The notes under the pieces are model-generated. The model was not told the origin of the DNA and did not search any database. It worked only from the letters and a program-made list of their open reading frames with translations. The translations under genes were made by a program, and so were the position numbers. From Escherichia coli (GTDB lineage: Bacteria; Pseudomonadota; Gammaproteobacteria; Enterobacterales; Enterobacteriaceae): a stretch of DNA of 64,000 nt. Where the stretch lies: NCBI RefSeq assembly GCF_003334765.1, contig NZ_QOWT01000008.1. One strand, 5' to 3'. Of the stretch, positions 37,447-59,360 are shown one piece after another. Position 1 is the stretch's first letter, and each line of letters opens with the position of its first letter.

Positions 37447-37634
<188 letters not shown>

Positions 37635-38294: not shown

Positions 38295-38405
38295 TAAAAA
38301 GAATTCAGAATCAGGCCGGAGTGCTAAATACTCCGTAAACACGGTCGTACATCCAGCCGGTAGCCTGATTCCTTGCATTGAGTGATGTACGGAGTTTATA
38401 GAGCA

Positions 38406-45003: not shown

Positions 45004-45780
45004 ATGTCCGAAACAAAAAACGAACTTGAAGACCTGCTGGAAAAAGCAGCAACTGAACCGGCGCACCGCCCGGCCTTTTTCCGTACTCTACTGGAATCCA
45101 CCGTCTGGGTGCCTGGTACGGCGGCGCAGGGCGAGGCTGTGGTTGAAGATAGCGCGCTTGATTTACAGCACTGGGAAAAAGAAGACGGCACCAGCGTCAT
45201 TCCTTTTTTCACCTCGTTAGAAGCACTTCAACAGGCGGTTGAAGACGAACAGGCATTTGTCGTAATGCCCGTTCGCACGCTGTTTGAGATGACACTTGGC
45301 GAAACGCTCTTCCTTAATGCCAAACTGCCAACCGGTAAAGAATTTATGCCGCGTGAAATCAGTTTGTTGATTGGTGAAGAGGGAAATCCGCTGAGCAGCC
45401 AGGAAATCCTGGAAGGCGGTGAATCGCTGATATTATCGGAAGTCGCAGAGCCGCCAGCACAAATGATTGATTCACTCACCACCTTATTTAAAACCATTAA
45501 GCCGGTGAAGCGTGCTTTTATTTGTTCAATTAAAGAGAACGAAGAGGCACAGCCTAATTTACTTATTGGCATTGAAGCCGATGGTGATATCGAAGAAATT
45601 ATTCAGGCGACGGGAAGTGTAGCGACCGATACATTACCTGGCGATGAACCAATCGATATTTGTCAGGTGAAAAAAGGGGAAAAAGGAATTAGCCACTTTA
45701 TTACCGAACATATTGCGCCATTCTATGAACGTCGCTGGGGTGGTTTTTTGCGTGACTTTAAACAGAATCGGATAATCTAA
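45004..45780 (+). CDS. sseB: SseB (enhanced serine sensitivity protein B)
   Basis: ORF 44995..45780, start MSETKNELEDLL at 45004, 258 aa. Confidence 0.85.
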   Translation: MSETKNELEDLLEKAATEPAHRPAFFRTLLESTVWVPGTAAQGEAVVEDSALDLQHWEKEDGTSVIPFFTSLEALQQAVEDEQAFVVMPVRTLFEMTLGETLFLNAKLPTGKEFMPREISLLIGEEGNPLSSQEILEGGESLILSEVAEPPAQMIDSLTTLFKTIKPVKRAFICSIKENEEAQPNLLIGIEADGDIEEIIQATGSVATDTLPGDEPIDICQVKKGEKGISHFITEHIAPFYERRWGGFLRDFKQNRII

Positions 45781-45783
45781 AAT

Positions 45784-45804
45784 ATGCCGCCCAAAGGGCG
45801 GCAT
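45784..45804. terminator. bidirectional hairpin terminator at sseB 3' end
   Basis: atgccgccc-aaa-gggcggcat; U-rich tract on the minus strand (atttta) and weaker on plus. Confidence 0.55.
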
Positions 45805-45813
45805 TCGGGCTTA

Positions 45814-45936
45814 CTTGCTGCTCTGAAGGTTGTTAACCACCAGTAAATTGTCGCCGGAGAGACTCCGGTTATTATTTACCTCGGTTAACAGCGCACCAGA
45901 AACAATAAGTACGATACAAAAGCACCGTATCTTCAT
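45814..45936 (-). CDS. candidate small ORF, 40 aa (MKIRCFCIVLIVSGALLTEVNNNRSLSGDNLLVVNNLQSSK), hydrophobic N-terminal segment
   Basis: ATG 24 nt downstream of the 24-aa ORF stop, preceded by hairpin tgcggtc...gaccgca, no clear SD; inside putative RyfA-like transcript. Confidence 0.3.
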
Positions 45937-45960
45937 TGTGCGGTCCATGCGAAGACCGCA

Positions 45961-46035
45961 TCACGACAGCACCACTGGCGATATTGCCGCGATAGCAAGC
46001 GCTGTGAAACACCTGCATTTACGGCCACGGAACAT
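45961..46035 (-). CDS. candidate small ORF, 24 aa (MFRGRKCRCFTALAIAAISPVVLS), basic N-terminus then hydrophobic tail
   Basis: ATG preceded by AGGAAAGG Shine-Dalgarno; inside putative RyfA-like transcript; not in the 60-aa-minimum ORF track. Confidence 0.3.
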   Translation of the reverse strand: MFRGRKCRCFTALAIAAISPVVLS

Positions 46036-46160
46036 CCTTTCCTAAAGCCAGCGCCCGTTTGCGAGACGGCGGAAAGGGCCGCAGTGGATAATACACTAAC
46101 AGAACAATAATAACTCTCTTTTGCTTGACAAAAAGAGAGTTACTGGCGAGTATTGTCTCC

Positions 46161-46258
46161 GCTGAGACGCGCTTGCATTACTACGGTAATACAACCTGCT
46201 GGAAAGGCCGCGAACCGGACCAGCAACAAAAAACCGCCTGATTTTGGCGGTTTTTTGT
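46161..46258 (+). ncRNA. candidate short sRNA from module A (about 100 nt)
   Basis: perfect -35 TTGACA (46125-46130), 17-bp spacer, weak -10 gagtat (46148-46153), intrinsic terminator 46229-46258; promoter block conserved in module B. Confidence 0.25.
46229..46258. terminator. bidirectional rho-independent terminator (module A)
   Basis: aaaaaaccgcc-tgatttt-ggcggtttttt with U-tracts on both strands. Confidence 0.6.
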
Positions 46259-46481
46259 TTTTTAAAGGAAAGTGAATTTACATGTTTAAGTAATATCTTT
46301 TACCGGTTAGAATTTTTAATTTTGAGCAGGATTTGTTTATATTTGTCTGAATTCGGACTAATAAGCCAGGTTATTTTATTACCGAACACGGCGGAAAGGG
46401 CCGGTGTCGATAATACGCTAAATAAACAATAATTACTCTCTTTTGCTTGACAAAAAGAGAGTTACTGGTGAGTATTGTTTT

Positions 46482-46586
46482 GCTGTGAAGCACCTGCGTT
46501 GCTCATGTAACACAAGTCAACCTGCTGGAAAGGCCGCGAACCAGACTAGCAATAAAAAACCGCCAAATTCGGCGGTTTTTTATTGC
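46482..46586 (+). ncRNA. candidate short sRNA from module B (about 105 nt), sibling of module A sRNA
   Basis: TTGACA (46447-46452), 17-bp spacer, gagtat (46470-46475), terminator 46553-46586 (shared with sseA on the other strand). Confidence 0.25.
46553..46586. terminator. bidirectional rho-independent terminator (module B; also terminates sseA)
   Basis: aaaaaaccgcc-aaattc-ggcggtttttt. Confidence 0.6.
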
Positions 46587-58131: not shown

Positions 58132-59250
58132 ATGCATAACCAGGCTCCAATTCAACGTAGAAAATCAACACGTATTTACGTTGGGAATGTGCCGATTGGC
58201 GATGGTGCTCCCATCGCCGTACAGTCCATGACCAATACGCGTACGACAGACGTCGAAGCAACGGTCAATCAAATCAAGGCGCTGGAACGCGTTGGCGCTG
58301 ATATCGTCCGTGTATCCGTACCGACGATGGACGCGGCAGAAGCGTTCAAACTCATCAAACAGCAGGTTAACGTGCCGCTGGTGGCTGACATCCACTTCGA
58401 CTATCGCATTGCGCTGAAAGTAGCGGAATACGGCGTCGATTGTCTGCGTATTAACCCTGGCAATATCGGTAATGAAGAGCGTATTCGCATGGTGGTTGAC
58501 TGTGCGCGCGATAAAAACATTCCGATCCGTATTGGCGTTAACGCCGGATCGCTGGAAAAAGATCTGCAAGAAAAGTATGGCGAACCGACGCCGCAGGCGT
58601 TGCTGGAATCTGCCATGCGTCATGTTGATCATCTCGATCGCCTGAACTTCGATCAGTTCAAAGTCAGCGTGAAAGCGTCTGACGTCTTCCTCGCTGTTGA
58701 GTCTTATCGTTTGCTGGCAAAACAGATCGATCAGCCGTTGCATCTGGGGATCACCGAAGCCGGTGGTGCGCGCAGCGGGGCAGTAAAATCCGCCATTGGT
58801 TTAGGTCTGCTGCTGTCTGAAGGCATCGGCGACACGCTGCGCGTATCGCTGGCGGCCGATCCGGTCGAAGAGATCAAAGTCGGTTTCGATATTTTGAAAT
58901 CGCTGCGTATCCGTTCGCGAGGGATCAACTTCATCGCCTGCCCGACCTGTTCGCGTCAGGAATTTGATGTTATCGGTACGGTTAACGCGCTGGAGCAACG
59001 CCTGGAAGATATCATCACTCCGATGGACGTTTCGATTATCGGCTGCGTGGTGAATGGCCCAGGTGAGGCGCTGGTTTCTACACTCGGCGTCACCGGCGGC
59101 AACAAGAAAAGCGGCCTCTATGAAGATGGCGTGCGCAAAGACCGTCTGGACAACAACGATATGATCGACCAGCTGGAAGCACGCATTCGTGCGAAAGCCA
59201 GTCAGCTGGACGAAGCGCGTCGAATTGACGTTCAGCAGGTTGAAAAATAA
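58132..59250 (+). CDS. ispG: 4-hydroxy-3-methylbut-2-enyl diphosphate synthase IspG (GcpE)
   Basis: ORF 58132..59250, 372 aa. Confidence 0.95.
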
Positions 59251-59360
59251 TAACGTGATGGGAAGCGCCTCGCTTCCCGTGTATGATTGAACCCGCATGG
59301 CTCCCGAAACATTGAGGGAAGCGTTGAGGGTTCATTTTTATATTCAGAAAGAGAATAAAC

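Follow-up and report, generated by a model that had tools for sequence, protein, structure and literature searches.

The window, a 64,000-nt stretch of DNA, represents E. coli K-12 with the gene order pepB-sseB-ryfA-sseA, and the two small tandem ORFs in its ryfA transcript in all likelihood belong to timP/timR, a type I toxin-antitoxin module known from enterobacteria, in which the downstream frame (ORF2) is timP and the upstream frame (ORF1) is a chance frame and no gene. The module has been published, and the reference K-12 genome, RefSeq, UniProt, NCBIfam and Rfam all carry annotations for it; nothing here is new, and the locus carries little weight for discovery. Its use is as a clean negative, in which a short ORF with a Shine-Dalgarno-like tract and a hydrophobic tail appears to be the by-product of a GC-rich, structured leader, and as a case where start-codon conservation, indel lengths and the cross-frame synonymous fraction separate a real from a spurious small gene within one 300-nt transcript. 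Coordinates of all features are collected in Table 1.

Table 1. Features of the timP/timR locus, in window coordinates
Feature	Coordinates	Strand	Basis and remarks
timP mRNA = RyfA RNA (b4440), one transcript	45779..46082	-	Rfam RF00126
timP terminator, intrinsic	45784..45804	-	Terminator scan: 9-pair stem, 7 GC, then T-run
ORF2 = timP (b4812)	45811..45936	-	RefSeq CDS WP_001380605.1 at identical coordinates
Second leader ORF, other frame (frame B)	45933..46028	-	GTG start in K-12, 31 codons; TGA overlaps timP ATG as AUGA
SL4	45940..45959	-	Rfam helix, 98.7% paired; timP Shine-Dalgarno (UGGA) in 3' strand
SL3	45960..45993	-	Rfam helix, 14 pairs, 5 with compensatory changes; ORF1 codons 15-24 and stop
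ORF1, 24-codon ATG ORF in 5'UTR, judged non-coding	45961..46035	-	Probable chance frame across structured RNA
SL2, TimR-binding stem-loop	45996..46015	-	Rfam helix, 96% paired; ORF1 codons 7-13
Site 2 (GGCCGU), switch element	46021..46026	-	ORF1 codons 4-5; predicted to pair with site 1 or site 4
SL1	46037..46076	-	Rfam consensus; 3' strand GGAAAG (46042-46037) is ORF1's supposed Shine-Dalgarno
Second TimR-like copy, unannotated	46161..46256	+	Aligns with timR over whole length
IS128 RNA	46214..46422	-	Rfam RF00125, 262.1 bits
timR (b4811), cognate antitoxin sRNA	46482..46581	+	NC_000913.3 annotation

The RyfA transcript and timP

The transcript matches RF00126 at 314.9 bits (gathering score 80) with model positions 1-296 of 296 covered, and ryfA is annotated at the corresponding 304 nt of NC_000913.3, which bears out the suggestion of an earlier note on this DNA that a RyfA-like transcript holds both ORFs. 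The intrinsic terminator coincides with the last Rfam helix of ryfA. The 3 kb around the site contain 44 ORFs of 20 aa or more.

ORF2 is timP, a real and conserved gene. Translated from the ATG at 45936 it spans 45936..45814, that is 123 nt or 41 codons, followed by a stop at 45813-45811; the start proposed in the earlier note stands, and its length of 40 aa is corrected to 41. A mechanical ORF call reaches an upstream in-frame ATG at 45948 and yields 45 aa (MDRT-MKIR...), this codon being conserved in Escherichia, Citrobacter and Kluyvera only. The NCBIfam profile NF040796 (toxic_TimP) matches ORF2 at 86.8 bits (cutoff 45), with residues 1-40 aligned to profile positions 1-40 of 40, and the translation is identical to TIMP_ECOLI and found on at least 1000 contigs. 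The earlier idea of a small hydrophobic type I toxin in this transcript is thereby confirmed, and the comparison with annotated timP which it proposed returns identity.

For comparison we used 24 copies of ryfA, taken from eight genera and one phage-plasmid; the breadth of loci came from a profile search of a representative library followed by retrieval of the encoding contigs, a contig scan having given 7 loci and a protein homologue search nearly all Escherichia. The timP ATG, at ryfA model-aligned position 147 with sseB and sseA flanking, is kept in 24 of 24 homologues. Indels in the coding sequence are multiples of three (3 or 6 nt) with two exceptions: L029, a disrupted allele with an 11-nt deletion, and L017, where the stop codon has a 1-nt gap. 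The synonymous fraction is 0.465 in the TimP frame versus 0.19 and 0.22 off-frame, and pN/pS between genera is 0.06-0.56; ORF2 is conserved across Enterobacterales as a coding frame. RNAcode was likewise reported to return the +145..+261 ORF as the sole conserved coding sequence (PMC7667032). Database entries for TimP of 63-66 aa were considered as ORF1-TimP fusions and rejected, as they reflect disruption by foreign sequence, frameshift, stop-loss or deletion.

The TimP N-terminus MKIRCFCIVLIVSGALL is conserved and, with a best 13-residue Kyte-Doolittle window of 2.86, strongly hydrophobic, and membrane localisation has been demonstrated for the Salmonella protein, whose overproduction makes the membrane leaky and is toxic, with repression by TimR (PMC7667032). 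By homology with these Salmonella experiments E. coli TimP is a putative toxin, and the product is annotated as 'putative' in NC_000913.3. In APEC, timR deletion had little effect (PMC13188913).

The closest described system is timP/timR of Salmonella Typhimurium (Andresen 2020, PMC7667032; Eleftheraki & Holmqvist 2024, PMC11228461; Eleftheraki 2026, PMC13000454), which shares with the K-12 locus the ryfA family RF00126, the sseA-sseB neighbourhood, a toxin ORF at +145/+147, the N-terminus MKIRCFC.VL.VSG, the stem-loops SL1-SL4 with covariation and a divergent TimR on the SL2 loop. The two differ in that E. coli TimP has 41 aa against 38 aa in Salmonella, with ~51% identity lying mostly in the N-terminal half, in that the K-12 cognate timR lies ~400 nt upstream and is not adjacent, in that K-12 carries what looks like the remnant of a duplicated module (IS128 RNA plus the second TimR-like gene), and in that the open leader frame is one of 24 codons in frame A (the frame of ORF1) in K-12 whereas S. 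Typhimurium has an 8-codon frame-B uORF.

The structured leader

Judged from covariation, the timP leader folds into SL1-SL4, with SL4 over the Shine-Dalgarno, and RNA pairing accounts for the conservation of the leader. A single-sequence MFE fold of the transcript, though stable (z = -5.4), did not reproduce SL1 of the covariation-supported structure, so the Rfam consensus was taken instead and tested by covariation: across 22 sequences its 40 pairs are formed in 95.4% of cells versus ~40% when the register is slid; compensatory changes occur in 12 pairs, a count reached by 0 of 500 shuffles. The lower stem of SL1 is 97% paired with 2 covarying pairs, and compensatory mutants (M7/M7') show that this stem is required for timP translation in Salmonella (PMC11228461). 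Mapped by homology, pseudoknot site 1 would lie in upper SL1 (about 46053-46047), and site 3 in SL3 (about 45979-45973); the site 1-3 pseudoknot is essential for translation of Salmonella timP (PMC11228461). The position of site 2 was carried over from C57, C58 and G59 of Salmonella, K-12 Rfam numbering being Salmonella +2, in agreement with the S2*/S4* compensatory design (PMC13000454), and its bases C59, C60, G61 and U62 are invariant in the 22 sequences. The SL2 loop is hypervariable and recurs upstream in all lineages examined. In Salmonella, SL4 hides the timP Shine-Dalgarno (PMC11228461, PMC13000454), and the site 1-2, 1-3 and 2-4 pairings form a switch (PMC13000454).

We infer by homology with the Salmonella experiments that the same switch controls timP in E. 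coli. In the inactive mRNA, site 1 would pair with site 2 and SL4 would hide the Shine-Dalgarno; in the active form, the site 1-site 3 pseudoknot together with site 2-site 4 pairing would open SL4. TimR, transcribed divergently from upstream, would place its 5' end on the SL2 loop, destabilise the active form and block translation. Control of timP would reside in the 146-nt structured leader, with no part for a leader peptide. The gene encodes 41 aa, with a hydrophobic N-terminus that would resemble a signal sequence left uncleaved; the Salmonella protein inserts into the inner membrane and, when overproduced, causes leakage. ORF1, in this scheme, would be a frame that by chance is open over site 2, SL2 and SL3 in the K-12-type allele, its hydrophobic tail ALAIAAISPVVLS being the translated GC-rich SL2-SL3 stems and its purine 'SD' one strand of SL1. 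By analogy with the Salmonella orthologue, in which these RNA elements have a demonstrated function (PMC11228461, PMC13000454), the sequence of ORF1 is fully accounted for by the RNA, each of its codons overlapping site 2, SL2 or SL3.

The upstream frame

ORF1 was found as the earlier note described it, with an ATG start and 24 aa (MFRGRKCRCFTALAIAAISPVVLS), and the 24-nt gap and hairpin reported between the two ORFs are also present, the hairpin being SL4. What had gone unnoticed is that ORF1 and ORF2 lie in one reading frame, 99 nt apart. The ORF1 stop (45963-45961) is placed 1 nt upstream of SL4. The ORF1 peptide has no match among NCBIfam families and is absent from a collection of 15 billion proteins. 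ATG ORFs of at least 24 codons arose in 1629 of 5000 dinucleotide-preserving shuffles (33%) of the 146-nt leader and, with the whole transcript shuffled, in 3104 of 5000 cases; since shuffled leaders and transcripts so often hold equally long ORFs, ORF1 is no more than chance would give. The caveat that both ORFs might be chance frames holds for ORF1 and falls for ORF2, a conserved gene.

Very probably ORF1 is not a gene, as comparative sequence analysis indicates. Its ATG and 24 codons are intact in 9 of the 24 ryfA copies; S. enterica, C. braakii, Erwinia, Rouxiella and the plasmid copy instead have ATA, ACA, ATT, GTA or TTA at the start position, and leader indels, found in four lineages, are of 1 nt. 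The leader ORF is thus not conserved with the toxin in start, frame or length. Among 5426 complete E. coli genomes, 2909 (~54%) carry an allele with TAG at ORF1 codon 6 and 1975 the K-12-type leader allele, so that in most E. coli genomes, which have this B2-type leader, ORF1 amounts to 5 codons. No excess of synonymous change was found in the ORF1 frame relative to the alternative leader frames, its synonymous fraction of 0.125 being the lowest of the three (others 0.19 and 0.21), and pN/pS versus K-12 is 0.8-6.4. Substitutions at codon positions 1/2/3 number 26/23/17 in ORF1 and 13/7/15 in the TimP N-terminus, a trend in the expected direction but with counts too few for significance (estimated chi-square p >0.1), for which reason the frame-contrast synonymous fraction and pN/pS were used. 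Quite a few lineages, some of them without the ATG, have frame A open over 24 codons, which a sceptic could read as weak conservation; we attribute it to a lack of indels and to sequence constraint from SL2 and SL3.

The Shine-Dalgarno assigned to ORF1 in the earlier note, AGGAAAGG, does exist at 46043-46036, but it abuts the ATG (spacing 0-4 nt, depending on the core counted) and is paired in SL1. In the Rfam consensus the GGAAAG of this tract pairs, with covariation, with CUUUCC at the 5' end of the transcript. As the tract forms the 3' strand of SL1 and adjoins the ATG, the structure model suggests that ORF1 has no accessible ribosome-binding site.

The earlier note had read the two ORFs as a leader-plus-toxin pair in the manner of mok/hok or tisA/tisB, a model that finds no support, ORF1 being unconserved, without a coding signature and only 5 codons long in most E. 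coli. On this reading ORF1 would be a genuine mok-type leader ORF, termination at its UGA before SL4 melting the 5' strand of that helix, exposing the timP Shine-Dalgarno and coupling timP translation to that of ORF1. The geometry does fit in the K-12-type allele, where the stop adjoins SL4 and the timP ATG follows 24 nt downstream, a purine tract precedes the ATG and the frame is open in the nine intact copies. Set against this, the codon-6 stop of the B2-type leader falls ~58 nt before SL4 in genomes with timP intact, S. enterica, C. braakii, Erwinia and Rouxiella have no such ATG, the purine tract forms part of the SL1 stem and runs right up to the ATG, and the frame carries no coding signature. 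Moreover, the full-length Salmonella mRNA is translated via the pseudoknot and the site 2-4 switch (PMC11228461, PMC13000454), and changing its leader uORF AUG to AAG left timP translation unaffected (PMC11228461). That uORF (AUG +53-55) was considered as the positional homologue of ORF1 and rejected, as it lies in frame B, has 8 codons and in the alignment starts 7 nt downstream of the ORF1 start; since it differs from ORF1, the experimental dismissal of coupling reaches ORF1 by analogy only. We regard a mok-type role for ORF1 as highly improbable.

The systems invoked for that model do resemble timP in other respects. The hok/mok/sok loci (plasmid R1 and chromosomal hok) likewise combine a small membrane toxin, a Shine-Dalgarno held in mRNA structure and antisense repression; in hok, however, the conserved overlapping mok must be translated for hok and processing of the mRNA 3' end is required, whereas the leader ORFs of timP are unconserved, the one tested is dispensable, and a structural switch activates the unprocessed primary transcript (PMC11228461). 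With tisB/istR-1 the locus has in common a divergent antitoxin sRNA whose target in the toxin 5'UTR lies well ahead of the start, and a pseudoknot in ribosome loading. The tisA reading frame upstream of tisB is not known to be needed for toxicity, and ORF1 resembles tisA in being an upstream ORF with no demonstrated function. The tisB mRNA differs in that 5' processing exposes a standby site, the timP mRNA being unprocessed (PMC11228461), and the sequences are unrelated.

Coupling might alternatively run through the frame-B ORF, its AUGA stop-start overlap with timP serving for termination-reinitiation. The overlap is found wherever this frame stays open, with 31 codons in K-12 and in many other copies; the start is ATG in 11 of 24 copies and in K-12 GTG, at MG1655 2,653,909, 7 nt separate it from the purine tract upstream, a better spacing than for ORF1, and the synonymous fraction of 0.19 is slightly above that of the ORF1 frame. 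That value, however, equals the off-frame background of the TimP region, the start codon is missing in B2-type E. coli and several genera, the frame has only 8 codons in S. enterica and C. braakii, and it is this uORF whose AUG mutation in Salmonella changed nothing (PMC11228461). The AUGA overlap itself arises because the Met-Lys start of TimP is conserved. Reinitiation from frame B is accordingly given very little credence.

It is very unlikely that, in K-12-/O157-type alleles only, translation of ORF1 or of the frame-B ORF serves as a lineage-specific way around the RNA switch. If so, occasional initiation in the SL1-SL2 linker would melt SL2, SL3 and SL4 and bring a ribosome to the timP start, and the TimP expression threshold would differ from that of B2-type strains, in which ORF1 stops at codon 6.

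Many unconserved short ORFs give initiation signals in E. coli profiling, and ORF1 might similarly undergo low-level, non-functional, lineage-specific pervasive translation in K-12-type strains, its ATG lying in the linker 3' of SL1 with a purine tract nearby. The timP mRNA is also abundant (PMC7667032). This reading is nonetheless unlikely, as a stable stem with covariation takes up the purine tract and the start of ORF1 (MG1655 2,653,902; span 2,653,902-2,653,976) is absent from the supplementary table of Stringer et al., which has no entry for ryfA, 2653902 or the timP ATG at 2654001 and lists neither ORF1 nor timP. Neither ryfA nor TimP is mentioned in 'The Cryptic Bacterial Microproteome'.

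There is next to no chance that ORF1 is the gene of another small toxin or membrane peptide. Its composition gives the idea some colour, the N-terminus being basic and the C-terminal half hydrophobic (GRAVY 0.96; best 13-residue window 2.24), but the hydrophobic stretch of ~13 residues is too short for a typical membrane span, the frame is unconserved with common premature stops and pN/pS mostly at or above 1, and in Salmonella the toxicity of the transcript is lost on mutation of the timP start codon alone (PMC7667032).

TimR and a putative duplicated module

The 5' end of timR, GCUGUGAAGCACCUGC, is complementary to timP SL2 over 16 contiguous bp (one G-U) at 46016-46001, and a terminator hairpin with a T-run follows the pairing region. 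A divergent upstream TimR with complementarity to SL2 is also present in seven other lineages, and all lineages examined show SL2 changing in concert with the 5' end of an upstream TimR. RNA duplex prediction between full TimR and the leader returned a meaningless end-to-end duplex, and direct complementarity was used instead.

Between timP and timR lies further related sequence. The second TimR-like copy has at its 5' end a 17-nt core, GCAAGCGCGTCTCAGCG, equal to SL2 of the B2-type timP allele. IS128 RNA has its promoter region and first ~25 nt in common with timP, a repeat that can be seen directly in the sequence, and then diverges, and a promoter-like palindrome is present twice, at 46435-46462 and 46109-46144. 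From these resemblances IS128 RNA looks like the remnant of a duplicated timPR module.

The ryfA locus and ORF2

The 322 nt queried around ryfA (45779-46100) share 100% identity with K-12 MG1655 derivatives, the gene order in the window is pepB, sseB, ryfA, sseA, and the RyfA-like transcript proposed in an earlier note was confirmed by Rfam (see table). ORF1, a 24-codon small ORF, had been placed correctly in coordinates, strand, ATG and length; ORF2 does start at 45936, 24 nt past the ORF1 stop and beyond a hairpin that is real, its length being 41 residues instead of the 40 first given. The two ORFs share one frame, 99 nt apart, with TGA plus 24 nt between them. Further Rfam matches in the window were GlmY (8688-8835, 146 bits), naRNA4 (37507-37578, 72 bits), the iscRS stability element (38295-38404, 138 bits) and SroE (59250-59341, 117 bits), all expected in that part of the K-12 chromosome.

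Features of the ryfA/timP region (SL, stem-loop of the timP leader; site, switch element)
Feature	Position	Strand	Remarks
ryfA RNA, RF00126	45779-46082	-	314.9 bits, gathering score 80; spans whole ORF1/ORF2 region
ORF2	ATG 45936, stop 45813-45811	-	41 residues
Hairpin separating ORF1 from ORF2	45959-45940		
ORF1	45961..46035	-	ATG start, 24 aa
ORF1 codons 15-24 + UGA	45993-45960	-	SL3 including pseudoknot site 3
ORF1 codons 7-13	46015-45996	-	SL2, loop binds TimR
ORF1 codons 4-5	46026-46021	-	site 2, GGCCGU
ORF1 'SD' GGAAAG	46042-46037	-	SL1 lower stem 3' strand; 97% paired; CG/UA/UG variants at one pair
Second TimR-like gene, unannotated	46161-46256	+	5' end matches B2-type SL2, not K-12's
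IS128 RNA, RF00125	46214-46422	-	262 bits; between the two TimR copies
timR, annotated (b4811)	46482-46581	+	mapped from NC_000913.3 annotation

The suggestion that ORF2 is a type I toxin comparable to timP was well founded, as ORF2 proves to be timP itself, a toxin gene already known at this locus: the annotated CDS coincides exactly with 45936-45811, NC_000913.3 carries timP (b4812), ryfA (b4440) and timR (b4811) at the same locus, the peptide aligns end to end with NCBIfam NF040796 (86.8 bits, curated cutoff 45), and its exact sequence is UniProt TIMP_ECOLI, present on at least 1000 contigs. Salmonella TimP, 38 aa long, resides in the inner membrane and has an N-terminus that resembles a Sec-type signal and is not cleaved; its over-expression causes cell death and propidium iodide permeability. 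An ATG-to-AAG change abolishes both protein and toxicity, and TimR, a divergent sRNA, prevents translation by base-pairing with the 5'UTR (PMC7667032). By analogy with this ~51% identical orthologue, the E. coli allele would be toxic. Studies in UPEC and APEC reported ryfA phenotypes to be independent of the TimP frame and timR deletion to have little effect (PMC8205139, PMC13188913).

An in-frame ATG four codons 5' of the timP start (45948-45937, minus strand) gives a 45-aa form (MDRT-MKIR...) used by the UPEC study and some annotations. This ATG lies inside the SL4 3' strand, overlapping the Shine-Dalgarno, and is missing from Salmonella and Erwinia, so the 41-aa form is the conserved one.

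ORF1 and the regulatory leader

We compared 24 ryfA copies, each Rfam-confirmed at 135-313 bits: the K-12 window, six other E. coli alleles, two Salmonella, Citrobacter freundii, C. braakii, three more Escherichia genome records (Escherichia sp. E1V33, an E. coli strain, E. whittamii), two Kluyvera, three Erwinia, one Klebsiella aerogenes contig, two Rouxiella contigs, one metagenomic lineage and one phage-plasmid copy. In 23 of them TimP has 38-41 aa, the exception being an 11-nt deletion allele, and the remaining CDS indels are of 3 or 6 nt, bar one copy (L017) with a gap of 1 nt at its stop codon. The ORF1 ATG and 24 codons are intact in only 9/24; in place of the ATG, S. enterica and Rouxiella have ATA, C. 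braakii has ACA, Erwinia has ATT or GTA and the plasmid copy has TTA. Indels of 1 nt fall within the ORF in four lineages, and it is cut short by a premature stop in every B2-type Escherichia allele and in one of the Erwinia copies. Allele-specific 56-nt searches of 5426 complete E. coli genomes found the K-12-type allele (24 codons) in 1975, the B2-type (ATG TTC CGC GAC CGT TAG, stop at codon 6) in 2909, and the O157-type, an open frame with six residues unlike those of K-12, in 383.

Codon-level conservation, scored in all three frames as the synonymous share of differing codons, separated the two ORFs. TimP codons 4-17 gave 0.465 in the claimed frame (0.19 and 0.22 in the others), whereas leader positions 48-119 gave 0.125 in the ORF1 frame, the lowest of three (0.19, 0.21). 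Nei-Gojobori pN/pS was 0.8-6.4 for ORF1 against K-12 and 0.06-0.56 for the TimP N-terminus in between-genus comparisons; RNAcode on the Rfam alignment reported the +145..+261 ORF as the only conserved coding sequence (PMC7667032). The mok/hok-style leader-plus-toxin arrangement once suggested is therefore not supported, ORF1 being unconserved as a frame and carrying no coding signature.

The Rfam consensus structure was projected on K-12 and tested with a 22-sequence alignment, in which 95.4% of cells were paired, vs 38-47% with partners slid by 1-3 columns; compensatory double changes occurred in 12 of 40 pairs, a count reached by 0/500 shuffles. Salmonella numbering (K-12 Rfam minus 2) was checked against the designed compensatory mutations C57/G125, G33-C34/G102-C103 and G125/C138 (PMC11228461, PMC13000454). 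Judged from the aligned sequences, each part of ORF1 coincides with an RNA element characterised in Salmonella, and what had been read as its strong Shine-Dalgarno is a stem strand paired in that consensus (see table). In Salmonella, SL4 sequesters the timP Shine-Dalgarno, translation needs both the site 1-3 pseudoknot and site 2-4 pairing, pairing of sites 1 and 2 holds the mRNA in its inactive form, TimR on SL2 disrupts the active one, the mRNA is unprocessed, and mutation of a leader AUG leaves timP translation unaffected (PMC11228461, PMC13000454). The uORF so tested differs from ORF1: it starts 7 nt downstream, in a different frame, and has 8 codons in S. enterica.

ORF1 is very probably a chance ORF spanning the regulatory leader. 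The earlier note held that both ORFs could equally arise by chance, which stands for ORF1, since ATG ORFs of at least 24 codons appear in 33% of dinucleotide-preserving leader shuffles (62% of whole-transcript shuffles), but fails for timP, whose ATG is kept in 24/24 copies. ORF1 matched no NCBIfam family, and its exact sequence was not found in a 15-billion-protein collection, a weak point as gene callers rarely output 24-aa products. Neither ORF1 nor timP is listed in an E. coli profiling supplementary table, timP being expected to be silent with TimR present; low-level, non-functional initiation may occur at the ORF1 ATG.

A second leader ORF lies in a frame other than that of ORF1 (45933-46028, minus strand), the frame of the Salmonella uORF shown to be dispensable (PMC11228461). 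Its start codon, GTG in K-12 and ATG in 11/24 homologues, lies 7 nt after the purine tract read as the ORF1 Shine-Dalgarno; the ORF runs to 31 codons in K-12 and many further copies, and its TGA overlaps the timP ATG as AUGA. It too is unconserved: S. enterica and C. braakii have 8 codons of it, and B2-type E. coli lacks its start codon.

TimR and an apparent module duplication

The timR 5' end GCUGUGAAGCACCUGC forms 16 contiguous bp with timP 46016-46001, one G-U among them. The SL2 loop varies by lineage, which accounts for the amino-acid variability of mid-ORF1, and every lineage carries a copy of that loop, 13-19 nt long, ~90-100 nt upstream at the divergent TimR 5' end; SL2 and the antitoxin therefore evolve together.

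Of the two TimR-like genes in K-12, the distal one is annotated timR, which matches K-12 timP SL2. The proximal copy sits at -91, where B2-type and O157-type strains hold their cognate TimR, and its 5' end has 17 nt identical to B2-type SL2 and 5 mismatches to that of K-12; it may be an orphan or cross-specific antitoxin that recombination between modules left behind. IS128 RNA has its promoter region and opening ~25 nt in common with timP, then diverges into unrelated AT-rich sequence, ending in a terminator hairpin common to the proximal TimR-like gene on the opposite strand. It looks like a remnant of a duplicated timP, so that K-12, with the second TimR-like gene, holds one and a half timPR modules. 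In alleles such as L002 and L006, IS128-type promoter sequence is joined directly to intact timP. A palindrome of ~28-36 nt (ACTCTCTTTTTGTCAAGCAAAAGAGAGT) with back-to-back -35-like hexamers (TTGTCA, TTGACA) lies between each divergent TimR/timP-type pair (46109-46144 and 46435-46462); it resembles a divergent promoter used by both genes and may also be a regulator binding site.

Other timP copies and damaged alleles

A diverged ryfA/timP homologue occurs on phage-plasmids (L008, 1499-1797, on E. coli plasmid NZ_JBRUTH010000002.1; hits H65-H75), with 134.7 Rfam bits, a TimP-like MKKYYMCIFIVVTGALFTPHGEGWKITDNALNVTINISSK and a TimR-like SL2 repeat upstream. Its carriers are non-mobilizable E. 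coli plasmids of ~48 kb (58 PLSDB records, that of the ATCC 25922 plasmid among them) and three Yersinia phages of 49 kb (vB_YpM_39, 41, 44). It neighbours C4 antisense RNA and parA and is unannotated in all records listed. Erwinia phyllosphaerae (L014) has tandem full-length timP copies (1048-1347 and 1616-1915) with identical TimP proteins and differing SL2 loops (GCGTTCTCAAGCGC vs GCACACCCATGTGC), a sequence pattern which suggests duplicated modules with diverged antitoxin specificity.

timP or its leader is frequently damaged in natural isolates (locus copies L012, L029, L003; database proteins P0001, P0031, P0041, P0054, P0075). SL1 is replaced in the type strain of S. arizonae, 11 nt are deleted from the CDS of one S. 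enterica allele, an apparent insertion-element end takes the place of the C-terminal half in several E. coli alleles, an E. albertii deletion removes SL4 and the timP start codon, and one E. coli strain carries ISEcp1 directly upstream, at the expected place of timR.
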